Of a stretch of DNA of 64,000 nt, positions 13,178 through 27,533 are shown piece after piece. Each line of letters begins with the position of its first letter. The first letter of the stretch is position 1. Where the stretch lies: NCBI GenBank assembly GCA_017405445.1, contig JAFRAK010000007.1:28321-92320 (forward strand). The letters run 5' to 3'. This stretch comes from Bacilli bacterium. GTDB lineage: Bacteria; Bacillota_I; Bacilli_A; RF39; UBA660. A program made the position numbers and the translations under genes. The notes beneath the pieces were generated by a model. The model searched no databases. It was not told where the DNA came from and saw nothing but the letters and a program-made list of their open reading frames with translations.

Positions 13178-13576
13178 ATGAATAAGAAAGAAGACTTCGG
13201 ATTAGAAGAATATGATGGAAAACATCATGATTTAGATGAAGATATTGATGATGATAGAGAAAAAATAGATATTGATTATCAAAATTTTAATCATCCAGGA
13301 GATTTTGATGTAGACGAAGATTATTTAGAAGATGAATATTCACCTGAAAGTTTAGATAATCATTATAGAGATGATTTATCATCATTAGATACATTAAGAT
13401 CATTCTTTAAATGGTTTGGTATCGTAGGAATGATTATTGCATTTATACTAGTAATATATTTTATTTCTAGAGGAAAAATCTTGGGATTAATATTATATTT
13501 ATTATTATTAGTAGGATCCTACTTTTTAGGATATTTCTTAATGTTTTTATACGTAACAAATTATTATCAGAAATAA
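13178..13576 (+). CDS. Hypothetical acidic protein with C-terminal transmembrane helices
   Basis: ORF with Asp/Glu-rich N-terminal half and two hydrophobic segments, followed by a strong terminator. Confidence 0.5.
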   Translation: MNKKEDFGLEEYDGKHHDLDEDIDDDREKIDIDYQNFNHPGDFDVDEDYLEDEYSPESLDNHYRDDLSSLDTLRSFFKWFGIVGMIIAFILVIYFISRGKILGLILYLLLLVGSYFLGYFLMFLYVTNYYQK

Positions 13577-13580
13577 CAAA

Positions 13581-13610
13581 AAGAAGACGTCGGCAACGTC
13601 TTCTTTTACT
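13581..13610 (+). terminator. Rho-independent terminator
   Basis: AAGAAGACGtcggcaaCGTCTTCTT followed by T-rich tract. Confidence 0.7.
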
Positions 13611-13890
13611 TTCTATCTAAGAGGCTGTCCCCCTGAGGCCAGCCTCCAAAAAGAATAAAAAGGGGTTGGCTAGTGTGATACTAGCGACCAATTCGCCTAA
13701 TTCCGAATTGGTGATACTTATACTAATCGAAATAGAGCAATTTGTCAATAAAAAATCGAAAAAAAAATCATTTTTTTTCATTGATAAAACAATGATTTAT
13801 GTAATTACTGACAATTTATAAAAAACACTTATAAAAATCAAAAAAAAAGTACATTTTTTTCTTTGAAAGATAAGTAGTTTATGATATAAT

Positions 13891-16285: not shown

Positions 16286-16401
16286 AATTTGAAAATGGAA
16301 TTGACTTTTTCAAATTTATACCTTATGATTAAAGTACGTGATAGTAAATATCACGTGAGTAATATCTCTAACGACTTTATGTTAGAGTATATTCAACCGA
16401 A

Positions 16402-16480
16402 CCCCCTGAAGACACTGTCGAGAGACAGTGTCACTTTTGTTTATAAGGGTTTTCGAAACTTTGAATTTTTTCTAGATACC
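16402..16480. repeat. Repeat R1: CCCCCTGAAG + 9-bp perfect inverted repeat GACACTGTC-gaga-GACAGTGTC + TTTATAAGGGTTTT + ttttctagata tail
   Basis: Seen directly. Near-identical copies at 17030 and 19926. C5 run is conspicuous in this AT-rich DNA. Confidence 0.85.
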
Positions 16481-16554
16481 ATACAGATACCAAAAATTCG
16501 AAAATATTTGAAAATTTTAACTGTTTATTTTAGTTTGTATGCGTTTATGGTATT

Positions 16555-16583
16555 TTGACAAAGATATAAAAGTATGTTATTAT
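16555..16583 (+). promoter_or_regulatory. Sigma-A-type promoter (TTGACA-17 nt-TATTAT) driving a short + strand transcript
   Basis: Consensus -35 at 16555-16560, 17-nt spacer, -10 at 16578-16583. Confidence 0.6.
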
Positions 16584-16610
16584 GTATACAGATGAGGGAA
16601 ACTTCATAAA

Positions 16611-16660
16611 ATAAAAAAAGGGAACATTCAGTTTTCGCAAGTTGAATGTCTACCCTAAAT
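16611..16660 (-). terminator. Minus-strand rho-independent terminator for the small-peptide mRNA
   Basis: On minus strand GGGuaGACAUUCA...UGAAUGUUCCC followed by U7. Confidence 0.6.
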
Positions 16661-16668
16661 TGGGTTTT

Positions 16669-16705
16669 GACACTTAATCAGTGCTGATTAGAGTGTCATT
16701 TTTTT
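16669..16705 (+). terminator. Plus-strand rho-independent terminator (also forms a hairpin in the minus-strand mRNA around its stop codon)
   Basis: GACACTTAATCAGtgCTGATTAGAGTGTC followed by T7. Confidence 0.65.
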
Positions 16706-16788
16706 ATTACTAAAACCAGTAAGGTTAAGAGTAGTAAAATGAGTGATATGTAGCGAAGCAACTTTATGTTGTATTCACGTTTTTTCAT
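16696..16788 (-). CDS. 30-aa hydrophobic peptide MKKREYNIKLLRYISLILLLLTLLVLVIKK, type I toxin-like small membrane protein
   Basis: Hand-translated. GGAGGT RBS 8 nt upstream. Own promoter and terminator. Below the 60-aa ORF-track threshold. Confidence 0.5.
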   Translation of the reverse strand: MKKREYNIKLLRYISLILLLLTLLVLVIKK

Positions 16789-16854
16789 TCTCTCAAACCT
16801 CCTCTCTATGATGGATTGGAGGTAGACACTCAACAACTAAATGTTCCTAAGATT

Positions 16855-16882
16855 AGTATATCAAATATATGTTCTATGTCAA
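16855..16882 (-). promoter_or_regulatory. Minus-strand sigma-A-type promoter (TTGACA-16 nt-TATACT) for the small-peptide gene
   Basis: Reverse complement of 16855-16882 reads TTGACAtagaacatatatttgaTATACT. Confidence 0.55.
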
Positions 16883-17029
16883 TATATGTTTCTAGATACC
16901 AAATCCAGATACTAATTGTAAAAAAACAAGATGTTTTTATAAACCTTAGTAAATTTAAAAAAATGAAAAAGCCTTATTTTATAAGACTTTAACTAATTAT
17001 TAAATTATTATGGGCTGGTTAATTAAATT

Positions 17030-17110
17030 CCCCCTGAAGAGACTGTCGAGAGACAGTGTCACTTTATTTTATAAGGGTTTTAAGAGTTGATAATCATTTT
17101 CTAGACGTAT
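17030..17110. repeat. Repeat R2 (copy of R1, one substitution in left arm of hairpin)
   Basis: CCCCCTGAAGAGACTGTCGAGAGACAGTGTCACTTTATTTTATAAGGGTTTT...ttttctagac. Confidence 0.85.
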
Positions 17111-17146
17111 TTCAAATATTTTGGTTATTTTATAAACTCTTTTTGT

Positions 17147-17155
17147 GTTATAATA
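17147..17155 (+). promoter_or_regulatory. Extended -10 promoter element TGtTATAAT
   Basis: Perfect TGnTATAAT. Would start a transcript near 17162. Confidence 0.45.
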
Positions 17156-17275
17156 AATATACAATTTACATTATCAAGAGCAAGGGAGAGAATTGGCTCA
17201 ATGATCTTGCACCAACCTATTTAGTTAGGTGGCAAAACCAACAAAGCATAGCTTTGAATGATAAATACGAATTAA

Positions 17276-17305
17276 CCTTATACGTTCGTATAAGGTTTTT
17301 CTTTT
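17276..17305 (+). terminator. Intrinsic terminator or attenuator about 30 nt upstream of the cassette's first RBS
   Basis: Perfect 20-nt palindrome CCTTATACGTTCGTATAAGG followed by TTTTTCTTTT. Confidence 0.55.
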
Positions 17306-17336
17306 CTTGATGGTGTCTATTGGGAAAGGAGAAATT

Positions 17337-17621
17337 ATGGAAAACTATATGAGTTACGGAAATGGAACTATAGGTGTTAGAGATGATGAATTATATGAGA
17401 ATTGGAATTCAGATTTTATTAAGTACCTAAAAGAAAGAGGTTTTAGTAACTGGGGACGCAAAGGTTATTTTTGTGGAAATGTATTATATGTTAATCTAAA
17501 TAGTAAAAGATATGCATTTAGTTGGCCTGGGGTTAAATTCACTGAACCTCTAGCATTAAAATATGTTTCAATTGAAGACTTTAAAAAAATATATGAAATA
17601 TTTGAAAAATATGATAAATAG
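17337..17621 (+). CDS. Hypothetical 95-aa protein, first gene of repeat-bounded cassette
   Basis: AAAGGAG RBS 5 nt upstream of ATG 17337. No recognisable motifs. Confidence 0.55.
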   Translation: MENYMSYGNGTIGVRDDELYENWNSDFIKYLKERGFSNWGRKGYFCGNVLYVNLNSKRYAFSWPGVKFTEPLALKYVSIEDFKKIYEIFEKYDK

Positions 17622-17674
17622 TAAATGATTGAAGATATATGTTATAATTTCTTATAAGAAATGGGTGATATTAT

Positions 17675-18451
17675 ATGACTTATTATAGTAACAGGCAAAT
17701 TAATAAGATGGTAAAAGATGCAATAGATAATTATTGCCCTCCTTCAACATATAAAAATAAAATGCCAACTGAGGAAGAATTTGGCATACAAGATATTGAT
17801 ATTGATCAAATAGAAAAAGAAAGAAACATATTTATGAAAAAAAAGGATAAATATGAAACTCTGATGGGTGCTTCGTTTATTTTTGGTTGTTTGCCTGCAT
17901 GGATAGTTTCATCTTTAGTTGGGCTATTATTTGAATTGTCAGACAATGCTTACATGTGGTTGTTTTCCGCTTCTTGGCTATTTTTAATTGTATTCTTCGG
18001 TATAATGAGTAGTAAAAAATATCCAAATGAAAAAACGTATGAAAAAACAAAAAAATATACTCAAGCAATATCTCAATATTATTGGTGGCAGGAAAGAAAG
18101 AAAAAGGATTTTTGGATTAAACTAGATGGAAGAAAGTTTGAAATTGAGGTAGCAAGAATATTTAAAAAATTAGGATATAAGACTAAAATATGCAAACAAG
18201 GTGGAGATGAAGGAGTAGATTTAGAAATAGAAAAAGAAGGAGTTTTAGAGATAGTTCAATGCAAAGCACATAAAGCAAAGGTATCTCCTTCAGTAGCAAG
18301 AGATTTATTAGGTACAATGTTAAATAAAAAAGTTAACCATTCATATTTAGTAACGTTAAATGGTGGTACTACTGGAACTATTGATTTTTGTAAAAAGAAC
18401 AACATTACTTTATGGGATATAGATGACATTATTAGATATGACAAAATGTAA
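17675..18451 (+). CDS. Membrane-anchored (2 TM) protein with C-terminal Mrr-like restriction-endonuclease catalytic domain
   Basis: FEIEVARIFKKLGYKTKICKQGGDEGVDLEIE...EIVQCKAHKAKV matches the Mrr_cat pattern (GxDxGxD...QCK). Two hydrophobic helices at residues about 65-115. Confidence 0.7.
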   Translation: MTYYSNRQINKMVKDAIDNYCPPSTYKNKMPTEEEFGIQDIDIDQIEKERNIFMKKKDKYETLMGASFIFGCLPAWIVSSLVGLLFELSDNAYMWLFSASWLFLIVFFGIMSSKKYPNEKTYEKTKKYTQAISQYYWWQERKKKDFWIKLDGRKFEIEVARIFKKLGYKTKICKQGGDEGVDLEIEKEGVLEIVQCKAHKAKVSPSVARDLLGTMLNKKVNHSYLVTLNGGTTGTIDFCKKNNITLWDIDDIIRYDKM

Positions 18452-18484
18452 TCTATATTAATTATTTGTATGGAGGTGATAGCA

Positions 18485-19792
18485 ATGAGAAAATATGAGT
18501 TACAATTTGATGATGAAAGTATTAAAGATACTATCCACTCTAATACTTTAAATAGAAATGATAAACTATTTAATTTAATAAGATTATTAAATAGTATGAA
18601 TGAAAATCATATTATTTCTATTGATGGTGGTTGGGGAAGTGGAAAAACTTTTTTTATAAAGCAACTTATATATTTAAAAAACAATCATAATGATTGTAAT
18701 TTTCTAAAGCAAGATGTTCATGATATTATTACTGAATTTAATGAAAAATATATAGTAGTTTATTATAACGCTTGGGAAAATGATGATCATAATGATCCGA
18801 TAGAATCAATTATTTATAATATATTAAATATTTTACCAAAGTACTCAGATACATTTATTGATACATCAGAGTTATTTGATTTAATAAAGAAATCCTGGAT
18901 GAATTTTATTGAAGTTTCATCACTAGGAATTGTTAAAACTGAAGATGTCAAAGAAATGAAAACTTTTTCTGATTTGGCAGATTCTGTTAATACAATAGAG
19001 GAAAAGAAAAATGCAGTTTTGACTTTGTTAAGTCATATTACTAAGTATAAAAGAATTCTTTTAATAATTGATGAGTTGGATAGATGTAAACCAGATTTTG
19101 CTGTTAAATCAATTGAAACCATAAAACATTTTTATGATAGTCCTAAAATAAGTACAATTTTTGTTACAAATAATAATCAGTTATCTAAGACAATAAAAAA
19201 ATTTTATGGTAATGAATTCGATGGATATAGTTATTTGAATAAAATATACGATGCAGTTATACCTTTACATTGTGATAATATTGAGCAATACTCTAAAAAG
19301 TATTTAGATATTAATCATAGTACTAATCTTCCTGAAGATGTTTCTATTTTTCTATTTAAACATTATAACCTTTCATATCGTGAATGTAATAAATATATGT
19401 CTATGTATAGGTTAATTGAGCCTTATATCCATTGGAAAGATAAATTTTCTGAAAATAATAGTAATATTGATATTTCATGTATATTTGTTCCTATAGCTAT
19501 TGCTTTAAAGGTAAAAGATATATACTTATATGAAAGATTTATACAAAATGATGCTTCAGATATCTTAAAGGAACTTTTTGATGATGATAAATTAAATAGC
19601 ACCAATGGTAATTTATATAGATGGTTTTGTGAAATCTTCAAAGTTAAAGAAGGAATGGAATTATCTAATAGAGTTGCTAATAGATATAAGGAAATATTTA
19701 GTGTAGATAATGTTTATGATTATAATAAATATCCTTATATGGAAGCTATATCTATGCTAGGTAATCTTATTCATATTGAAGATGATAAATAA
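18485..19792 (+). CDS. KAP-family P-loop NTPase
   Basis: Walker A ISIDGGWGSGKTFF. Walker B plus KAP signature LLIIDELDRCKPDFAVK. GGAGGTGA RBS. Confidence 0.8.
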   Translation: MRKYELQFDDESIKDTIHSNTLNRNDKLFNLIRLLNSMNENHIISIDGGWGSGKTFFIKQLIYLKNNHNDCNFLKQDVHDIITEFNEKYIVVYYNAWENDDHNDPIESIIYNILNILPKYSDTFIDTSELFDLIKKSWMNFIEVSSLGIVKTEDVKEMKTFSDLADSVNTIEEKKNAVLTLLSHITKYKRILLIIDELDRCKPDFAVKSIETIKHFYDSPKISTIFVTNNNQLSKTIKKFYGNEFDGYSYLNKIYDAVIPLHCDNIEQYSKKYLDINHSTNLPEDVSIFLFKHYNLSYRECNKYMSMYRLIEPYIHWKDKFSENNSNIDISCIFVPIAIALKVKDIYLYERFIQNDASDILKELFDDDKLNSTNGNLYRWFCEIFKVKEGMELSNRVANRYKEIFSVDNVYDYNKYPYMEAISMLGNLIHIEDDK

Positions 19793-19925
19793 TAATTTTT
19801 AGGTTCTATTTAGGTTCTATAAATAGTAAAAAATCTTAAAAAATAGTAAAAAATTATAATACAGAGGGTTAACGATTATATTGATTTAACAGGTTTTAAT
19901 AAGCAAAAGGTCTATTAAATCGCGA

Positions 19926-20000
19926 CCCCCTGAAGACACTGTCGAGAGACAGTGTCACTTTATTTTATAATAGTTTGTGAAACTTTATATTTTTTCAAAT
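19926..20000. repeat. Repeat R3 (copy of R1)
   Basis: CCCCCTGAAGACACTGTCGAGAGACAGTGTCACTTTATTTTATAA...gaaactttatattttttc. Confidence 0.85.
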
Positions 20001-20357
20001 ACTAATTAAAAAAATTCACATTTTATATGTGAAGTTTTTTATTATACTATTTTTTCTTTTTATTGTTAATTGTTACATATGCTATACTACCTAATAAAAG
20101 TGATATAGCAACAATCATTACACATATTAGTTTTAAATTATCTGTATTTTCATTTGACTCTTCAATCGTATCAAAACTCATATTCTTATATGATATTAAT
20201 GGATTATATTCTTCATCATTATTACTAGATCCTAATAATAGTCCATTATCTTCTTCATTACTATTTTTATAACATAATAAAAAACATTTTTATGATTATT
20301 GTCTTTGACATTTTAGATTGTTGTAAATATAATAGAAATTTATAGGGAGGATTTATT

Positions 20358-20678
20358 ATGTTAGGAGAAAACATAGTAGCAGCGGTTATCGATGTAGATT
20401 GTTATCAAAATACAGAAGAAGAAATAAAATACGGTGGACCTAAATACTTAGGTTTTGAGTTTTGGGTTAGAAAAAAAGAAAAAGAATTTATGACAGAGTA
20501 TGTTAGATGCATGTTACATGAATATAATGTACCGATTATCAATATAAGAAATACAAAATCAAAAATAGTGAATGAAACAGAACTACATACTTTAGATCAA
20601 ATAAGAGAAGTAATAGAAAATAACAAAGATCACATGTTTGAAGATTACAAGTATTATAGTAAAAAAAGATGCAAATAA
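20358..20678 (+). CDS. Hypothetical 106-aa cytoplasmic protein
   Basis: GGGAGG RBS. Followed by terminator. Confidence 0.55.
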   Translation: MLGENIVAAVIDVDCYQNTEEEIKYGGPKYLGFEFWVRKKEKEFMTEYVRCMLHEYNVPIINIRNTKSKIVNETELHTLDQIREVIENNKDHMFEDYKYYSKKRCK

Positions 20679-20687
20679 TGACTAATA

Positions 20688-20714
20688 AAAACAGATAAAA
20701 ATCTGTTTTTATTA
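20688..20714 (+). terminator. Rho-independent terminator
   Basis: AAAACAGATaaaaATCTGTTTT followed by T-rich. Confidence 0.65.
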
Positions 20715-20826
20715 TGGAATAGTTTAGTTATAAAGAAGTTTTATTGTAAATAATAGTAAACTTATAAAAATTAATTTACTATCAATTATTATTATGAGAT
20801 AATGACAATAGGAGGGTTGTGAAAAA

Positions 20827-23800
20827 ATGGTCGAAGACAATGGATTGATAGAGAATTCTAAAAATAAAGGATTCAAACAAAAGAAAATAAAAGAATTTTT
20901 AGATGAATATGCCGATAGTAATCTAAAATTTACAGATGAAAGAATAAAGTTATGTTCATCAGATGATTTTAATGAATTAGCTGATGTTTTTAAAAGTTTA
21001 CAAAAACAAAAACATGCTCCTATTATGATTAGTCAAGTAGGAGGTTTTTACGTTATGGCTTCTTTGGCAGGCCATGCAGCAGATAATAGTAGAACCAAAC
21101 CAGTTTTACTTTTTTTTGATAAAAAAACGAATAATATTGCCAATGCTATTTACAATACTTTGTTAATGCAAGCATGTGATACAAAAGAAAGATATATCGC
21201 AACTTTATTTGGATTAGATGATAAAGATATTATTATAAGTTTAGATGAAAATAAATATATTGATTATATTGTACAAGTATTTAAAGAAAAAGAAGATACT
21301 ACAAAAATTGATAAGAAAAGAATTACTATAAAAGCATTACGAAAATATAAAGAAAATAAAGAAGAATATGATGAAATCATTGCGAAAGAACATGATTTGG
21401 CTCATAGAGCTATGAGAGAATTAGAAGAAAACTTTAATATTGCGAATATAGAAAAATATGCTGAATCAAAAAAATATGATAAAGAAAAACATCTTAATAT
21501 CATCAATAAAGCAATTGAAGGAAAACTAAGTAAAGAACATAAAGCATTATTTGAACCAATTGCCAAATCTATGACAGATTATTTAGCTAAAGGAGAAAAC
21601 TATTACGACTTAGTCAATTATTTATCTAGAGATATTCAAAAGAATCAAGAAAATCATATTTTATGTAATGATGATATTTATGAAGGATATAAATCATTAA
21701 TTAGTAAAAAAGGACAATCATCCGTAAAATTTGTACCAGGAGTAGATATTTCTACAGAAGCCGGTATTAATAAATTAGAAAAAATACTAACAAATGAAGG
21801 CTTCATTAATAAAAATGATAAACCTAATAATTTCCCAATAGACATTGCTTTTTTACCACATATAGAGACATTCCAAGGAGCTTATCCTTTTATCAAGAAA
21901 AATGTAGAAAAATATATCAGAGTTAACCGTGAAAATGCTAATAATTTTTCAATGCATCCAACTGCTTCATTACATGTAAGAACATATGATAGTATAGGAG
22001 CTAATTTTATAGAAGAAGAAAGAAAAAGTAGAAAGCCATTAACGCATCTAACTCCAATTGAAAAACAAGAAAAAGGATTCCCATTACTTACATTTATCGC
22101 AGGTGCCAATATTGGTAATATTTATAATAGTGAAGTAGATTTACAAAATGTTATTGATATGGCAATTGCAGATAAAGTAGATACAGTTTATATTCAAGGA
22201 TTAATCTATTCTACATACTATCATAATCAAACCAATAGGAGATTACTAGTAGATCCTAAATATGAGACATTAGATCAAAGATTAAAAGCAGCAAAGAAAC
22301 TTGTAAAAAAATTAAATGATAATGGAATTAAAGTAGTCTATCAAATGGGTGATGAAGAATATCACTTATATGAAGATATGTTTAAGATTTATACAAGAGA
22401 ACAAGGTGTAAAAGGAAATGATTTCTTAAGAAGAGATGATTTAAAATCAGCTCATGATTGGGTTAGACCAATTATTATTCAAGAATTGATTCCATATTTA
22501 ATTCGTAGTGGAGAAGATTTAACCAATTTCTATACAGATGAAGAAAGAGAAACAAGAGTTACAGAACTATGTAATGCTTTAAAGAATTATAAAGAAGGAC
22601 TACCTTTAGGAGAACTAGCAAAATATATTAAACCCGAATTTCTAAAAGATACAGATATGTTTAGAGTTGTTTATTCTACAATAGATAGATATGATAAAGA
22701 CCCAGCATTATCTGTAAACATTTTAAGTAATCCAAATTTTTCCACAAATGCACAATATTCCAATCCAACAGGAGGAATAATTAAAAACTTAAAAATCTAT
22801 CAAACAGGGGCACTTGGAAGTGGAAAACTTGCCCAAACTCCACAATTATTTGTAGATGGAAGACAAGGTATGATGTCCATTTCTTATCGTGGTGATCAAG
22901 TAACGATGAATGTACCACAAATGATAGATGATGCCAAATATATAGAACATCCTGAATTATTGTCGGGAATTAAAGAACATATAACTTCTGATCCAACTCA
23001 TGCTAGAGTAACAAAAGGAAGTACTAGACCAAATTATCCAGGTTCTTGGACTATTACTGGAGATGCTCGTGAGAAAATGACAATAGTTCCATATTGGAAA
23101 AGAGCAAGAGAAGTAATGGATTATGTTAATAAAACAGGAAAAGGATTAGAAGAAATTGATGTATTCTATTTAAATGATATACAAGCAGGATCATTAACAG
23201 AAAGATTAGAATATACGTTAAAAGCATTAGATCATTTTTACTATGATTATCCTGCACCTAAAGGAATCTGGGGAAATGGAGATTTTCAACAAGGATGGAA
23301 TTATTCTTCATTTGCTAATGAATCTAGACATTTAGGAACAATGAGTGTAGCAGGGCAAATGGAAGACTTTATTAAACTAATTCGTCCATGGATGAGAGAA
23401 TCATTTGGAGTAATTGATCCAACAGTATTTGTAGGAAAATACCCAGATTATAAAATTGATAAAGAAACAGCCGCAAAGATTATGACTCATCTAAGTAGTG
23501 TAAATGTGATTGATTCTAATAAAGGAATTAATCATAATACAGATTTAATTAAAGATGGTGTTGATTATAAAAAAGTAGATTTAAAATTACCTCCAGATTT
23601 ACAACCATATGAAGATACAATTCGTGAAAAATTATCTAATATTAAATTATTAAAATTTATCCATCTAGCAGAAGGAAATCATGAATATAATTCTGATTGG
23701 GATAAAAAAGGATTTAATTTAATTAAACTATTACGTCAAGAATTAAATGGTATGAAGGATTATTCTGGAGCTGATACAGAAATAGCTTTAAGTGAATTTA

Positions 23801-24348
23801 TTATAAATAAAAGAGGAGATATCCTACAGGCACCTCATGGTAGTAAAACTGTAAATGGATATAATGTAGCATATAGTCATTTGTATAGAGCTGCAACAGG
23901 AGAAACTCCTACGAAAGGAATGTCTAAACATTTTGATCGGATGGGAGATTTATCAAATGAGGTTCATAGAGCTTTCATGGGACATTTACATGTATTTGAA
24001 ACATCTGTTATTGATAATAAACTATTTAGTATTACTGGTAGTGGAGCAGGACAAAGTGGTTTTGAACAAAACCTAGGCCTTGCTAGTAGACCATTATTTG
24101 TAATTGATAGATATTTACCAGATGGTAGAGTTGCTGTAGATACTATTGGTACTGAATTTTTAAAGAATTATAAAATTCAAAATCCAGTTGTAAAAGCAAT
24201 GGGACTTGAAAATTTCATTGATGCCTGTCTAACAGAAGAAGTAGGAGTATATGGATTTAATGGTACTCCAAAAGATATTCAACCAGTTCATCAAAGAAAA
24301 TTAGTGATTGCTGAACCAAATAAAATAGTAGGACCTAAAATAGACTAG
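20827..24348 (+). CDS. Large (1173 aa) cytoplasmic hypothetical protein. Weak C-terminal metallophosphoesterase-like motifs (GNHE ... GHLHVFE)
   Basis: Single uninterrupted ORF. No signal peptide or TM. GGAGGG RBS. Motif assignment is tentative. Confidence 0.6.
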   Translation: MVEDNGLIENSKNKGFKQKKIKEFLDEYADSNLKFTDERIKLCSSDDFNELADVFKSLQKQKHAPIMISQVGGFYVMASLAGHAADNSRTKPVLLFFDKKTNNIANAIYNTLLMQACDTKERYIATLFGLDDKDIIISLDENKYIDYIVQVFKEKEDTTKIDKKRITIKALRKYKENKEEYDEIIAKEHDLAHRAMRELEENFNIANIEKYAESKKYDKEKHLNIINKAIEGKLSKEHKALFEPIAKSMTDYLAKGENYYDLVNYLSRDIQKNQENHILCNDDIYEGYKSLISKKGQSSVKFVPGVDISTEAGINKLEKILTNEGFINKNDKPNNFPIDIAFLPHIETFQGAYPFIKKNVEKYIRVNRENANNFSMHPTASLHVRTYDSIGANFIEEERKSRKPLTHLTPIEKQEKGFPLLTFIAGANIGNIYNSEVDLQNVIDMAIADKVDTVYIQGLIYSTYYHNQTNRRLLVDPKYETLDQRLKAAKKLVKKLNDNGIKVVYQMGDEEYHLYEDMFKIYTREQGVKGNDFLRRDDLKSAHDWVRPIIIQELIPYLIRSGEDLTNFYTDEERETRVTELCNALKNYKEGLPLGELAKYIKPEFLKDTDMFRVVYSTIDRYDKDPALSVNILSNPNFSTNAQYSNPTGGIIKNLKIYQTGALGSGKLAQTPQLFVDGRQGMMSISYRGDQVTMNVPQMIDDAKYIEHPELLSGIKEHITSDPTHARVTKGSTRPNYPGSWTITGDAREKMTIVPYWKRAREVMDYVNKTGKGLEEIDVFYLNDIQAGSLTERLEYTLKALDHFYYDYPAPKGIWGNGDFQQGWNYSSFANESRHLGTMSVAGQMEDFIKLIRPWMRESFGVIDPTVFVGKYPDYKIDKETAAKIMTHLSSVNVIDSNKGINHNTDLIKDGVDYKKVDLKLPPDLQPYEDTIREKLSNIKLLKFIHLAEGNHEYNSDWDKKGFNLIKLLRQELNGMKDYSGADTEIALSEFIINKRGDILQAPHGSKTVNGYNVAYSHLYRAATGETPTKGMSKHFDRMGDLSNEVHRAFMGHLHVFETSVIDNKLFSITGSGAGQSGFEQNLGLASRPLFVIDRYLPDGRVAVDTIGTEFLKNYKIQNPVVKAMGLENFIDACLTEEVGVYGFNGTPKDIQPVHQRKLVIAEPNKIVGPKID

Positions 24349-24368
24349 AAAACTAGTCTTTTTTTATT
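24341..24368 (+). terminator. Rho-independent terminator overlapping stop codon
   Basis: AGACTAGaaaaCTAGTCT followed by T9. Confidence 0.7.
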
Positions 24369-24470
24369 AAAATAATCTATGATATAATAAAAATGATAAG
24401 GAGATATACTAAGGATTAAAAAAAGAAAAAGTAGAAATAAAAATAATAGAGAAAAAATAGAGAGGTTTAT

Positions 24471-25253
24471 ATGAAAAAAAGTTTAATAATAATAGGAATT
24501 ATATTATTAATAGGAATAGGAGTGATTATGATGGTATTATTAAAACCAAAAAAAGAAATAAATTCTATTAAATCATTAGAGTATAGAGAATCAGATGGAA
24601 GAAGTATGTATGGTGCGTTAGAATATACTTATCATTGTGGAAAAGATTGTACTCTAACCACAAAACCACAAGGAGTAAAGGATGAAGATGCTTTAAAAGT
24701 AGAAGTGACAGAGGAAGAACAAGAAGAATTATTAGAATTAGTAAAAAAATATAAAGTTGCTTCATGGGATGGGTTTAAAGGATCAGATAAATATGTATTA
24801 GATGGATCTAGTTTTACACTTTCAATAAAAACAAAAGATGATGTTACCATTGATGCTAGTGGATATATGAAATATCCAAGAAACTTTCATAATTTTATGA
24901 AGGAATTAGAAGAATTATTCGCAAGAATTAATCGAAAAAAACTATTTATCATATTTGATCATGAAAAATATAAAGACTTTAAAATTGAAAATGTATCAAA
25001 ACTAGTAATTACAAAAGAAACAGAAGGTGGATTAGATACAGAAGAAATTATAGAAAAAGAAGAAATTGAAAAGAAATATGATTATTGGAAACATATAGTA
25101 ATAGGACCAAAATGCTCTATGGCTTGTGAAGACAATACAACAATCTATAAATTTATCATGAATGATGGAAAAGAATATACAATTGAAAAGGAATGTGATT
25201 GGGTAATTATTGATAAAGATAGATATTATTATCAATATAGAAAGGATGTATAA
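24471..25253 (+). CDS. Membrane-anchored hypothetical protein (N-terminal TM, Cys-containing ectodomain)
   Basis: ORF with N-terminal hydrophobic helix IIIGIILLIGIGVIMMVLL. Confidence 0.55.
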   Translation: MKKSLIIIGIILLIGIGVIMMVLLKPKKEINSIKSLEYRESDGRSMYGALEYTYHCGKDCTLTTKPQGVKDEDALKVEVTEEEQEELLELVKKYKVASWDGFKGSDKYVLDGSSFTLSIKTKDDVTIDASGYMKYPRNFHNFMKELEELFARINRKKLFIIFDHEKYKDFKIENVSKLVITKETEGGLDTEEIIEKEEIEKKYDYWKHIVIGPKCSMACEDNTTIYKFIMNDGKEYTIEKECDWVIIDKDRYYYQYRKDV

Positions 25254-25254
25254 A

Positions 25255-25473
25255 ATGAATGGTTTTTCATGTTTAATGATAATATTTGGAGTTTTAATCT
25301 TTCTCGCCGGATTATACATTTATACAGGACATAAAAACCCAGTTCTATTATGGAAAGTATATAATCTAGATACGATTAGTAAAAAAGAACTTCAAAATAT
25401 CGGAAAATGGACAATGATTTCCAGTATTATTCCATTTCTACTATCCATATTAGGATTCTTTATAGAAGTTTAA
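25255..25473 (+). CDS. Small 2-TM membrane protein (72 aa)
   Basis: Starts 2 nt after previous stop. Two hydrophobic helices. Confidence 0.45.
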   Translation: MNGFSCLMIIFGVLIFLAGLYIYTGHKNPVLLWKVYNLDTISKKELQNIGKWTMISSIIPFLLSILGFFIEV

Positions 25474-25597
25474 AAATTATTATAAGACTAAATAAAACTT
25501 TTATATTATTACATTTAAAAGTTATATTTACCTTTTTAATAATATTGACTAATCATAATAGCTATTTTATAATCATATTAAAGATAGGAGAAGTATT

Positions 25598-26277
25598 ATG
25601 AATAATAACGAAATTAATGAGAGTGAACAAAATCAAAATATCATGACAGAAGGGAATCAAACACCACAAGTCCCTTTAACAAATTCAAATAATGAAAAAG
25701 GAAAAAATAATAATGTTATTCCAATTGTTCTATTAGTTTTAATAGTTGCAGTAGGGGCATTTATAGTATTTATGAATAAAGATAAATGGTTCAATACAAA
25801 AACAATAAAGAATTTAAATACAGAAGAAAAATCAAATAAAGAAAAAGAAAAACAAACAATTAACAGCGATGAAACCAAAGAAGAAAAAACAGAACGTCAA
25901 CCGAAACTTCTACAAATCAAGAAACGAAAACATCAACCGAAACTTCTGCAAATCAAGAAACACAAACACCTACTGAACCTTCTACACCTCAAGAATCACA
26001 ACCTGCTTCTGACCCTGAACCAACACCTACAGTGAATGAAATTGAAGAAATACCAGGAACAACCTTATATCTATATTCAGATGGTTCTATAGGAATGGAT
26101 GGAATGAATTTTGAATATGTAAGTTCAAATTCAGGTGTATTGAATGTTAATATAACAATTAATGGTAGTACAAAAAACTATAATCTTCCAATTGGACAAG
26201 AAACAAAAATTGATAATTTAAAAAATCCCATTCTAGTGGAAGCGGAAGATGACTATTTTTTAATTAATTTTAGATAA
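25598..26277 (+). pseudogene. Frameshifted gene for an N-terminally anchored secreted protein with Thr/Glu/Pro-rich linker. A +1 shift at the A6 run 25884-25889 splits it into track ORFs 25598..26035 and 26032..26277
   Basis: Adding one A to the A6 run fuses both ORFs into one about 226-aa protein: ...EEKNRTSTETSTNQETKTSTETSANQETQTPTEPSTPQESQPASDPEPTPTVNEIEEIPG... Confidence 0.55.
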
Positions 26278-26390
26278 TATTGAAAAAATAAAAGAATTGT
26301 CAATAAATGACAATTTTTTTTGTATAAATATAATTATAAAGAAAAAGTATTATAGAATATGTTATAATAATAACTTTGAGGAGGAATAAT

Positions 26391-26903
26391 ATGTCAAAAT
26401 CATTACCTTACATAAATAATCTAGAAATATATAATGGAGCATTTATTACACCCTCTAATGCTATTATTTTAGTAAAAGATAAACATGATATTACAGCAAA
26501 AAAGTATTGTGAAGGAGAAAACGAGCAATCATCTCAATTAAGTATAAAAGAACAAGAACTATATGAATATTGGAAAAATTATAATAAATGGAGAAAAAAT
26601 AATAGAGAAACAGATTTTTTAATCACTGTCTTAGGATTTGATAAAATAGAAAATATTGTAAAGCATAGTATTATGACCTCTTCACTAGAACCCCATATTC
26701 GTTTTTATAATTATTTGTTAATGGATTGGACCATTAATTTACAAACTAGAGTTATATATAATCCAGACAAGAAAACATTTGAAAGACAATCTCTTAGTAG
26801 TTGGCATATAGGTAGTTTAGAAGAACAAGAAGCAAGAGAAGAAATCGAAGATATAAAAAAACGTGTAAAAAAAATAGATAGACCATTATTCTTTAAAAGC
26901 TAA
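26391..26903 (+). CDS. Hypothetical protein (about 170 aa)
   Basis: GAGGAGG RBS 6 nt upstream of ATG 26391. Confidence 0.55.
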   Translation: MSKSLPYINNLEIYNGAFITPSNAIILVKDKHDITAKKYCEGENEQSSQLSIKEQELYEYWKNYNKWRKNNRETDFLITVLGFDKIENIVKHSIMTSSLEPHIRFYNYLLMDWTINLQTRVIYNPDKKTFERQSLSSWHIGSLEEQEAREEIEDIKKRVKKIDRPLFFKS

Positions 26904-26963
26904 AATCTTTACAAAATAGAACTTTTATGATATAATACATAACCATTAAAGAGAGGGGTACGT

Positions 26964-27533
26964 ATGGAGAAAAAATTAAATTTATATTTAAATATAATAG
27001 AATCAGTTCTTATCTTTATATTAGTAGGAATGGGAACGATTCTTTATGTAAATCAAATAAGATTTGGAATGTTAGAGAAAAATCTAATTATTACAGGAAG
27101 TTTTATTTTAGAATTTTTATTAATTTCCATTGAATTATTTATTTTCTATAACTTAAAAAATAAATATAAATGGACTACGATGGTATTCTATTTATTAGAT
27201 TTTGTCTTATTATTTGTTATAGCAGCAAAAATACCATTCTATGGAATTATGATATTATTAATATTGAATATAACAAAGAACATTTTAAGAGTATTAAAAT
27301 TAGAAGAAATAAAAGATTTAAATCAATACTATAAAATATGTGAAACATTTAATATAAAAGTAAAAAAATCTACAAAGAAAAGAACAACTACATCTAAAGT
27401 TAGTGCTCCAAAGACTAAAAAAGAACCAACAAAAGTTCCAAAAACAACTACGAAAAAAGCACCTGATAAGAAAGCAACTTCAACAAAACCTAAAACAACA
27501 ACTTCTAAAAAAACAAGAAAAAGTTATGCTTAA
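26964..27533 (+). CDS. 4-TM membrane protein with Lys/Thr-rich (histone H1-like) C-terminal tail
   Basis: Hydrophobic helices then KKSTKKRTTTSKVSAPKTKKEPTKVPKTTTKKAPDKKATSTKPKTTTSKKTRK. Confidence 0.55.
   Translation: MEKKLNLYLNIIESVLIFILVGMGTILYVNQIRFGMLEKNLIITGSFILEFLLISIELFIFYNLKNKYKWTTMVFYLLDFVLLFVIAAKIPFYGIMILLILNITKNILRVLKLEEIKDLNQYYKICETFNIKVKKSTKKRTTTSKVSAPKTKKEPTKVPKTTTKKAPDKKATSTKPKTTTSKKTRKSYA

Follow-up and report, generated by a model that had tools for sequence, protein, structure and literature searches.

The window analysed here is a 64-kb stretch of DNA from a Bacilli bacterium (contig JAFRAK010000007.1). It contains recG, followed by a 120-aa open reading frame (ORF), the gene of a small RNA (sRNA), and three cores of one 36-nt repeat (R1, R2, and R3) that delimit two islets: islet 1, a 628-bp R1-R2 unit with positions 16438-17029 between the cores, and islet 2, of 2.9 kb (17066-19925). 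Considering the window together with related loci, we are confident, though short of certain, that the end of the sRNA gene is an integration hotspot where integrase-less remnants of mobile elements have accreted in tandem.

At the sequence level, the pattern CCCCCTGAAGAsACTGTCGAGAGACAGTGTC matched three times in the window (starts 16402, 17030, and 19926), always on the plus strand, and never in 100 dinucleotide-preserving shuffles (chance expectation, 0). A profile search of the 64 kb retrieved three cores only, all inside 3.6 kb. R1, R2, and R3 form a single 72-nt family, with tails 79-89% identical. The cores are:

16402-16437, plus strand: core R1, last 36 nt of the sRNA gene (CCCCCTGAAGACACTGTCGAGAGACAGTGTCACTTT); predicted regenerated target end and attL-type junction
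17030-17065, plus strand: core R2, predicted displaced 3′ fragment with a single stem mismatch
19926-19961, plus strand: core R3, predicted displaced 3′ fragment and, by sequence, also a terminator 3′ of the KAP gene

An earlier sequence-only reading had proposed three shared repeats with a perfect 9-bp inverted repeat and a common tail. The three repeats are real. The inverted repeat is perfect in R1 and R3, but R2 has one mismatch (GAGACTGTC...GACAGTGTC) and a weaker DNA fold (-6.5 vs. -9.7 kcal/mol). The proposed tail TTTATAAGGGTTTT follows R1 and R2, but not R3, which is followed by TTTATAATAGTTTG. R1 and R3, each with a G+C-containing hairpin and then a T-run, were listed by the terminator scan as intrinsic terminators; R2, with its stem mismatch, was absent from the list.

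R1 is embedded in a larger transcribed unit with the following features:

16301-16329, plus strand: sigma-70-type promoter of the sRNA (TTGACT, 17 nt, TATGAT), from the promoter scan
16336-16444, plus strand: sRNA gene of ~107 nt with approximate ends, from fold, covariation, and promoter
16336-16356, plus strand: sRNA hairpin P1
16366-16387, plus strand: sRNA hairpin P2
16411-16432, plus strand: sRNA terminator hairpin and U-run

For comparison, we fetched related genome and metagenome loci, to which the L numbers below refer: scanning 185,579 species-representative genomes gave 24 loci, and a metagenome scan gave 58 further loci. All these relatives are metagenome-assembled genomes (MAGs) or metagenome contigs. 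Most MAGs with the module were labelled Erysipelotrichaceae, Bacilli, or Bacillales, and many were sampled from ruminant gut. Two Muribaculaceae-labelled MAGs, L008 (CAZVUP010000003.1) and L010 (CAZWXX010000019.1), also have the recG-sRNA locus, with a RecG 79-85% identical to the Bacilli-type protein of the window; their labels probably reflect mis-binning or mislabelling.

The ~65-nt 5′ part of the sRNA (window 16335-16400) occurs once in the window and precedes the module in 53 places; the core follows in 52 of them and has diverged in L038. The usual place of the gene is 3′ of recG and a small ORF, though not in every case (L067). Across 46 distinct loci, TTGAC and TATGAT/TATAAT are kept at equal spacing. 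Folding of the window copy gave z = -6.05, and a nearly invariant, conserved single-stranded UAUAUUCAACCGAACCCCCUGAAG lies between P2 and the terminator hairpin. In an alignment of 32 sequences, 12 of the 24 pairs presented compensatory changes and 98% of cells were paired; none of 500 shuffles reached the observed values, and slid controls were 19-52% paired. No Rfam family was found for the sRNA (gathering threshold for the whole window, E up to 10 locally), nor did ARAGORN find a tRNA or tmRNA in the window, so the target is not of the tRNA/tmRNA kind. Thus, given the conserved 5′ part, the promoter, the covariation, and the lack of Rfam, tRNA, or tmRNA identity, R1 does not stand by itself as a repeat but forms the 3′ end of a genuine, previously undescribed sRNA gene, and the repeat hairpin is the intrinsic terminator of this sRNA.

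R2 and R3 have in common with the sRNA gene only its final 36 nt. Among 69 distinct copies, conservation reaches at least 90% at all positions of this block (CCCCCTGAAGACACTGTCGnGAGACAGTGTCACTTT) but the loop base. Conservation drops on both sides, the 10 preceding positions being conserved at 65% at most. The array therefore has the anatomy of a site-specific island, with the intact target at one end and a displaced 3′ copy as a direct repeat at the other. Exact copies of the core number 1-3 per MAG and are clustered, and the core terminates many contigs. The contigs of L039, L041, L070, L022, L055, L058, L087, L088, L091, and others begin or end in or just past a core or a miniature islet. 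Both repeats break short-read assemblies, and arrays are therefore under-sampled.

In related rumen and gut Bacilli genomes and contigs, the 36-nt core flanks elements of 7.6-10.5 kb. In these full-size elements, a tyrosine integrase gene lies ~130 nt from the core, accompanied by genes for a Mob_Pre relaxase and an AAA_25 ATPase; short tandem arm repeats stand at set distances from both cores. With Pfam, Phage_integrase proteins (PF00589) with an arm-binding or SAM-like N-terminus were found adjoining cores in L006, L013, and L024, together with the Mob_Pre relaxase and the AAA_25 protein in L013. A profile search gave 16 integrase ORFs that adjoin cores, 10 of them on the minus strand ~130 nt downstream of the core; L067 presents two integrase ORFs in tandem. 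The core-linked integrases belong to phrog_1, the main phage integrase family, and one has a weak, sub-threshold match to the Arm-DNA-bind_4 domain. A complete case is provided by L018 and L013, adjacent pieces of one contig with an integrase ORF spanning the join. The order there is recG, sRNA with core, three AGATACCA repeats, integrase, relaxase, AAA_25, cargo, and second core; the element measures 8.08 kb, and the integrase stop codon lies 134 nt from the core start. Another hotspot element type has the integrase on the plus strand (L024 3-6317, L057 3759-4868), and the L024 element carries a type I restriction-modification system (HsdM-HsdS fusion and HsdR) as defence cargo.

At least seven integrase lineages, at 35-77% identity, use the core, each with its own arm motif. 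The AGATACCA-type integrases are 100% identical in three contigs, and the AACTACCA-type ones are 76% identical to them. Those of the TACCCATTAT, TAGGTTCTAT, TAGGTACC, AAACCAC, and other types are 35-49% identical to those of other lineages. No homologue of this integrase family was detected in the window (3-iteration jackhmmer, all ORFs of at least 60 aa in the 64 kb). For serine recombinases and transposases, the Pfam check covered the ORFs between 9.7 and 34 kb. Thus, an integrase gene stands beside one junction in the related loci, but not in the window, where the sequence-only reading had also seen no recombinase and had advised looking elsewhere for one.

The arm motif type tracks the integrase clade. 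In three integrase-bearing elements (8.1, 7.6, and 10.3 kb), AGATACyA pairs occur on both sides: relative to the left core at +72/+84 (with a further copy at +105), and relative to the right core at -135/-122. In integrase-bearing elements the arm motif is identical on both sides, but this is not so in many integrase-less islets. Lineage-specific repeated arm motifs flanking a core are what would be expected of attachment (att) sites for heterobivalent tyrosine integrases, and the sequences suggest that the sites are of this type. The 54 sRNA-linked cores comprised eight arm types and apparently empty sites. At apparently unoccupied sites the core is followed by CACTTTTTTT and a gene, whereas at occupied sites it is followed by CACTTTATTTTATAAGGG and an arm.

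Strain comparisons gave the content variability that had been predicted for this locus. In two pairs of contigs with one and the same RecG protein, the elements 3′ of the sRNA differ (L089 vs. L090; L091 vs. L092). The arm in L089 is AAGGAyATTT, and its element includes PcfJ, SSB, and resolvase genes; in L090, the arm is AACTACCA and the integrase shares 98% identity with the one in L040. Occupancy and content thus differ among close relatives with conserved flanks. Conversely, the int-mob-rep module is 97-99% identical among L049, L067, and L018+L013, but the flank of L067 is unalignable with the other two. In L067 and L069, the two cores of one element differ in the stem, each being internally compensated. 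L088 (RecG 98% identical) has the same sRNA 5′ part as the window and a different, internally compensated terminator stem. For these reasons, the crossover probably falls to the left of the hairpin, in the invariant CCCCCTGAAGAC; the hairpin loop was considered a less likely place for it, because compensated stems differ across one element (L067, L069) and in L088.

The features of islet 1 are:

16438-16495, plus strand: left arm, AGATACyA motifs AGATACCA at 16474 and 16485 (+72 and +83 from the core)
16555-16706, plus strand: putative antitoxin RNA, with promoter at 16555-16583 and terminator hairpin at 16669-16698 plus T-run
16696-16788, minus strand: 30-aa hydrophobic peptide ORF (MKKREYNIKLLRYISLILLLLTLLVLVIKK), putative type I toxin
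16886-17029, plus strand: right arm, AGATACyA motifs AGATACCA at 16894 and AGATACTA at 16907 (-136 and -123 from R2)

Islet 1 is an integrase-less miniature of the AGATACCA-type element, with its arms in register. Partial tail copies (TTCTAGATACCA) had been reported at ~16470 and ~16889; they exist, and mark the AGATACyA pairs at 16474/16485 and 16894/16907. The right arm is 80-89% identical to element right ends in L013, L049, L034, and L063. Islet 1 has neither integrase nor relaxase and keeps attL and attR, the hallmark of a cis-mobilizable element (CIME). At least 10 contigs, with differing neighbours, have the whole unit at 76-92% identity, which is no more than suggestive of mobilization in trans.

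Its cargo is a putative type I toxin-antitoxin-like module, to judge by the convergent promoters and terminators around the peptide ORF. The ORF has a promoter on the minus strand (16882-16855) and a Shine-Dalgarno sequence, and the peptide is 97-100% conserved in L012, L020, L063, and L069. The promoter of the antitoxin RNA scored 11/12 in the scan, with TG, and this RNA would converge on the toxin transcript and overlap it. In Firmicutes, type I toxin-antitoxin loci of the txpA/RatA and bsrG/SR4 type have convergent transcripts overlapping at their 3′ ends. Islet 1 resembles them in its hydrophobic 30-aa ORF with a Shine-Dalgarno sequence and in the convergent antisense-RNA promoter and terminator overlapping the 3′ end. 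Unlike them, it has no sequence or Rfam match to a described family, and its role is a predicted one. Variant miniature islets carry a second small hydrophobic peptide (MSKKDFLISSLVLIILLLIALLFVILK; L012 7071-7151, L021 4227-4307, L034 126-206, L059 6144-6224). In L012 and L020, two miniature units stand in tandem, joined via arm repeats and not via the core.

The features of islet 2 and of the DNA that directly follows R3 are:

17066-17125, plus strand: left arm, a single AGACGTAT at 17103 (+73), second repeat degenerate
17168-17267, plus strand: SAM-I riboswitch aptamer (RF00162, 64.6 bits)
17274-17297, plus strand: riboswitch terminator
17337-17621, plus strand: 94-aa ORF 3′ of the riboswitch, with 23 homologue clusters
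17675-18451, plus strand: Mrr_cat nuclease-domain protein (PF04471, 7e-20; PADLOC PDC-S02, 1e-10)
18470-19792, plus strand: KAP-family P-loop NTPase (PF07693, 1e-33; PADLOC PDC-S20, 4e-43)
19790-19925, plus strand: right arm, TAGGTTCTAT at 19790 and 19801 (-136 and -125 from R3), of a type unlike the left arm
19962-20010, plus strand: 3′ of R3, a AGATACCA-type left arm in decay, sharing 82-87% identity with left arms as far as TTTTTTC

The left arm of islet 2 matches the arms with two AGACGTAT of L032 and L034, and its right arm is 92.7% identical to L003 4764-4941. By its sequence, islet 2 is probably a chimeric remnant. Its cargo had been taken for defence-type. In support of this, the KAP and Mrr-like proteins resemble PDC-S20 and PDC-S02, both PADLOC candidate systems, and another locus carries the type I restriction-modification system mentioned above. 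The tail after R3 is of the element type (CACTTTATTTTATAA), not the native CACTTTTTTT; with the decayed left arm there, R3 is not the distal end and the array continues. Downstream of the array there was no DNA or protein synteny in any fetched locus, so that no distal limit could be placed on the variable region.

We propose that the last 36 nt of the sRNA, a C-rich single strand (CCCCCUGAAG) plus the intrinsic terminator, would be the chromosomal attachment site. Its users would be integrative mobilizable elements (IMEs) with phage-type tyrosine integrases. Each element would bring its own 36-nt copy, so that recombination at the core would regenerate an intact sRNA gene proximally and leave the displaced copy distally. 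The hairpin may travel with the element and so complete the gene again, as happens with elements that target tRNA genes. Successive integrations would produce a tandem array, and later deletions would strip integrase and transfer genes, leaving integrase-less islets between cores. In the window, R1 would be the regenerated sRNA end and R2 and R3 displaced copies, which agrees with the earlier proposal of recombination-site copies bounding DNA inserted at a hotspot beside recG. Islet 1, with its two pairs of arm repeats in register, could therefore still be mobilized in trans by a cognate integrase.

Several points weigh against this explanation. The arms of islet 2 are mismatched and partly degenerate, although both cores are present, and none of the fetched loci matched its cargo at the DNA level; that the islet derives from an element is thus argued from its ends. 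Neither an empty site nor an excised circle was seen for this species. L087, with a RecG 100% identical to that of the window, matches the window exactly up to its contig end at 16832; this second sample of the strain differs nowhere along its contig. With no integrase in the window, nothing shows that the islets can move now. The core had no copy in the viral contig collection, and there is therefore no evidence of the elements being phages. Finally, the relatives are all MAGs or metagenome contigs, and their arrays are often cut by assembly breaks.

The sequence-only reading favoured an integron-like layout, in which attC-type repeats would bound promoterless cassettes captured by an integron integrase encoded elsewhere. 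This likeness is real in that direct, hairpin-forming repeats in one orientation part short gene-bearing units, with no recombinase in the window, and units are reshuffled between strains. Nevertheless, we found neither an IntI integrase, attI, and Pc nor a tyrosine recombinase homologue in the window, and the sequence has no GTTRRRY/RYYYAAC boxes. Sites of the attC kind keep their structure while sequence and length vary, whereas these copies are nearly identical in sequence (at least 90% per position except the loop base). Moreover, R1 belongs to a transcribed gene, the islets include promoters of their own and a riboswitch and have genes in both orientations, and the recombinases of the relatives are element-borne phage-type integrases with arm repeats. 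The integron analogy was therefore abandoned, and we regard an integron here as extremely improbable.

Hardly more credible is the notion that R1, R2, and R3 are independent copies of a favoured intrinsic terminator, generic or like repetitive extragenic palindromic (REP) sequences, with no site-specific recombination. R1 and R3 do score as terminators, and R3 follows the KAP gene. Yet identity runs 9 nt upstream of the hairpin into CCCCCTGAAG and then stops sharply, and just three copies occur in 64 kb, all within 3.6 kb. What decides against a generic terminator is that each MAG has only one to three exact copies, clustered 3′ of the sRNA gene wherever this gene is on the contig; besides, the copies are flanked by fixed-offset arm repeats and integrases. 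The earlier statement that the repeats are not terminators was thus wrong as to their form and right in that termination is not the cause of the repetition. We give somewhat more weight, while still considering it improbable, to R2 and R3 being 3′ modules (seed plus terminator) of other regulatory RNAs, kept for their function. The C-rich stretch is invariant and single-stranded, read-out transcripts from the islets would end in seed plus terminator, and the contexts upstream of R2-type copies are conserved across genomes. However, these conserved contexts hold arm repeats and are explained as element right ends, the R2 stem is weakened, and the plus strand has no promoter-like site of at least 9/12 in the ~150 nt preceding R2 or in the ~450 nt preceding R3. 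Such sibling sRNAs could be an addition to integration at the sRNA end, not a replacement for it.

Integration at the sRNA end has close parallels in described systems. In tRNA and tmRNA islands (the Islander/TIGER scheme), integration restores the target, and the far end is recognizable by a displaced fragment (PMC4383910). Likewise, here an integrase-bearing element carries a 3′ copy of a small stable RNA gene, the target would be regenerated, several integrase lineages share one target, and occupancy is strain-variable. The differences are that the target is a ~107-nt undescribed sRNA, that the identity block is a C-rich single strand plus terminator, and that the window holds integrase-less islets only.

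CIMEs are decayed elements without integration and transfer genes that keep attL and attR, and accretion into a resident att site gives tandem arrays (PMC5704250), as reviewed for the streptococcal ICESt1/ICESt3 CIMEs (PMC5704250, its refs 79-80). The Mob_Pre-type relaxases in IMEs and the toxin-antitoxin cargo are also shared with the integrative conjugative elements (ICEs) and IMEs of that review. Streptococcal CIMEs target protein-coding or tRNA genes at their 3′ ends; here, an sRNA gene is the target. Islet 1 is far smaller (628 bp) than described CIMEs and is found as a unit in at least 10 contigs, and its mobility is read from sequence alone. Outside tRNA genes, a recent precedent is phage phiEf11, which attaches at a site within the Enterococcus faecalis 4.5S RNA gene, ffs (PMC12540744). 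This is also a Firmicutes tyrosine-integrase element with a core inside a non-tRNA small-RNA gene and attP near the integrase gene. In our case, the RNA is another one (no signal recognition particle RNA match), the elements are relaxase-bearing IMEs and not phages, arrays are formed, and many integrase lineages take part.

A bolder extension, which we regard as doubtful, is that the sRNA end is a cassette platform. Integrases of full-size elements would excise and reinsert in trans those integrase-less miniature units in which both arm pairs are retained, the 628-bp toxin-antitoxin islet being one, and would shuffle small defence and addiction cassettes in an integron-like manner, though with enzymes of the phage type. 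Because the core contains the invariant C-rich strand, each insertion would put a copy of it and a terminator at the end of a cargo transcript, such as that of the KAP gene. In this way, the regulon of the sRNA, for which a regulatory function is presumed, could become coupled to the load of mobile elements.

The overall scheme is already known as a familiar bacterial route to foreign-gene collection. What is new is an unannotated, strongly conserved sRNA in uncultured rumen and gut Bacilli, whose 3′ end appears to be a landing site common to at least seven integrase lineages. This would extend the island-targeting rule for tRNA and tmRNA genes to a regulatory-type sRNA, with a seed-like stretch and terminator as the identity block. 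The 628-bp arm-complete miniature element is also noteworthy. At the practical level, the 36-nt core and the arm motifs are a precise marker of where mobile elements, with the defence genes they carry, begin and end in metagenome assemblies that otherwise break here, and matched sets of integrases and att sites are available for testing as integration tools.

The SAM-I (S-adenosylmethionine) riboswitch of islet 2 scored above the threshold (64.6 vs. 44.4 bits), covered model positions 1-108, and has an expression-platform terminator. Such a riboswitch (62-67 bits) stands directly 5′ of a conserved 92-94-aa protein in the window (17168-17621) and in L083 (7671-8279), L084 (1169-1777), and L086 (81-689), three unrelated contigs. 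The genes that follow are MTaX1 and a C5 DNA methylase in L083 and L084, and the Mrr-like nuclease and KAP NTPase in the window. The 94-aa ORF had no Pfam, NCBIfam, or PADLOC match, and its AlphaFold model (pLDDT 78.6) had no PDB fold match. A SAM riboswitch before an accessory gene of methylation/restriction-type modules is unusual, and might link restriction or defence to the SAM level.

Between R3 and the housekeeping-type genes at ~27.6 kb, the window has ORFs of 106, 1173, 260, 145, 175, and 189 aa (20047-27533); one more, at 20047-20181 on the minus strand, is small and membrane-like. Pfam, NCBIfam, and PADLOC searches gave no family for the ORFs from 20 to 27.5 kb, among which the 1173-aa protein without a domain match stands out. 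They may be further decayed element cargo. The GC content, 23-31% throughout, gave no island signal. An exact-sequence look-up of three window proteins gave no match; the RecG on record begins 7 residues further in.

Finally, the intergenic region 5′ of recG (13575-13748, minus strand) is 85-90% identical in ~25 loci, exceeding the coding flanks. A motif related to the repeat had been reported at 13626-13650. The CCCCCTGAGG motif is indeed present in a hairpin loop there, but the profile search found no copy of the repeat, and this is a separate conserved intergenic element. The invariant loop CCUCAGGGGG of its RNA is complementary to CCCCCUGA of the sRNA downstream of recG. The duplex of the sRNA C-run with the G-run loop (-17.3 kcal/mol) was reached by 53 of 500 shuffles; it is not significant and serves as a lead only. 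The element had no Rfam match (E up to 1). On the minus strand it presents a promoter (TTGACA at 13748, TAGTAT at 13720), a terminator (13607-13579), and a covarying hairpin stem, and it looks like a second undescribed sRNA of ~140 nt.

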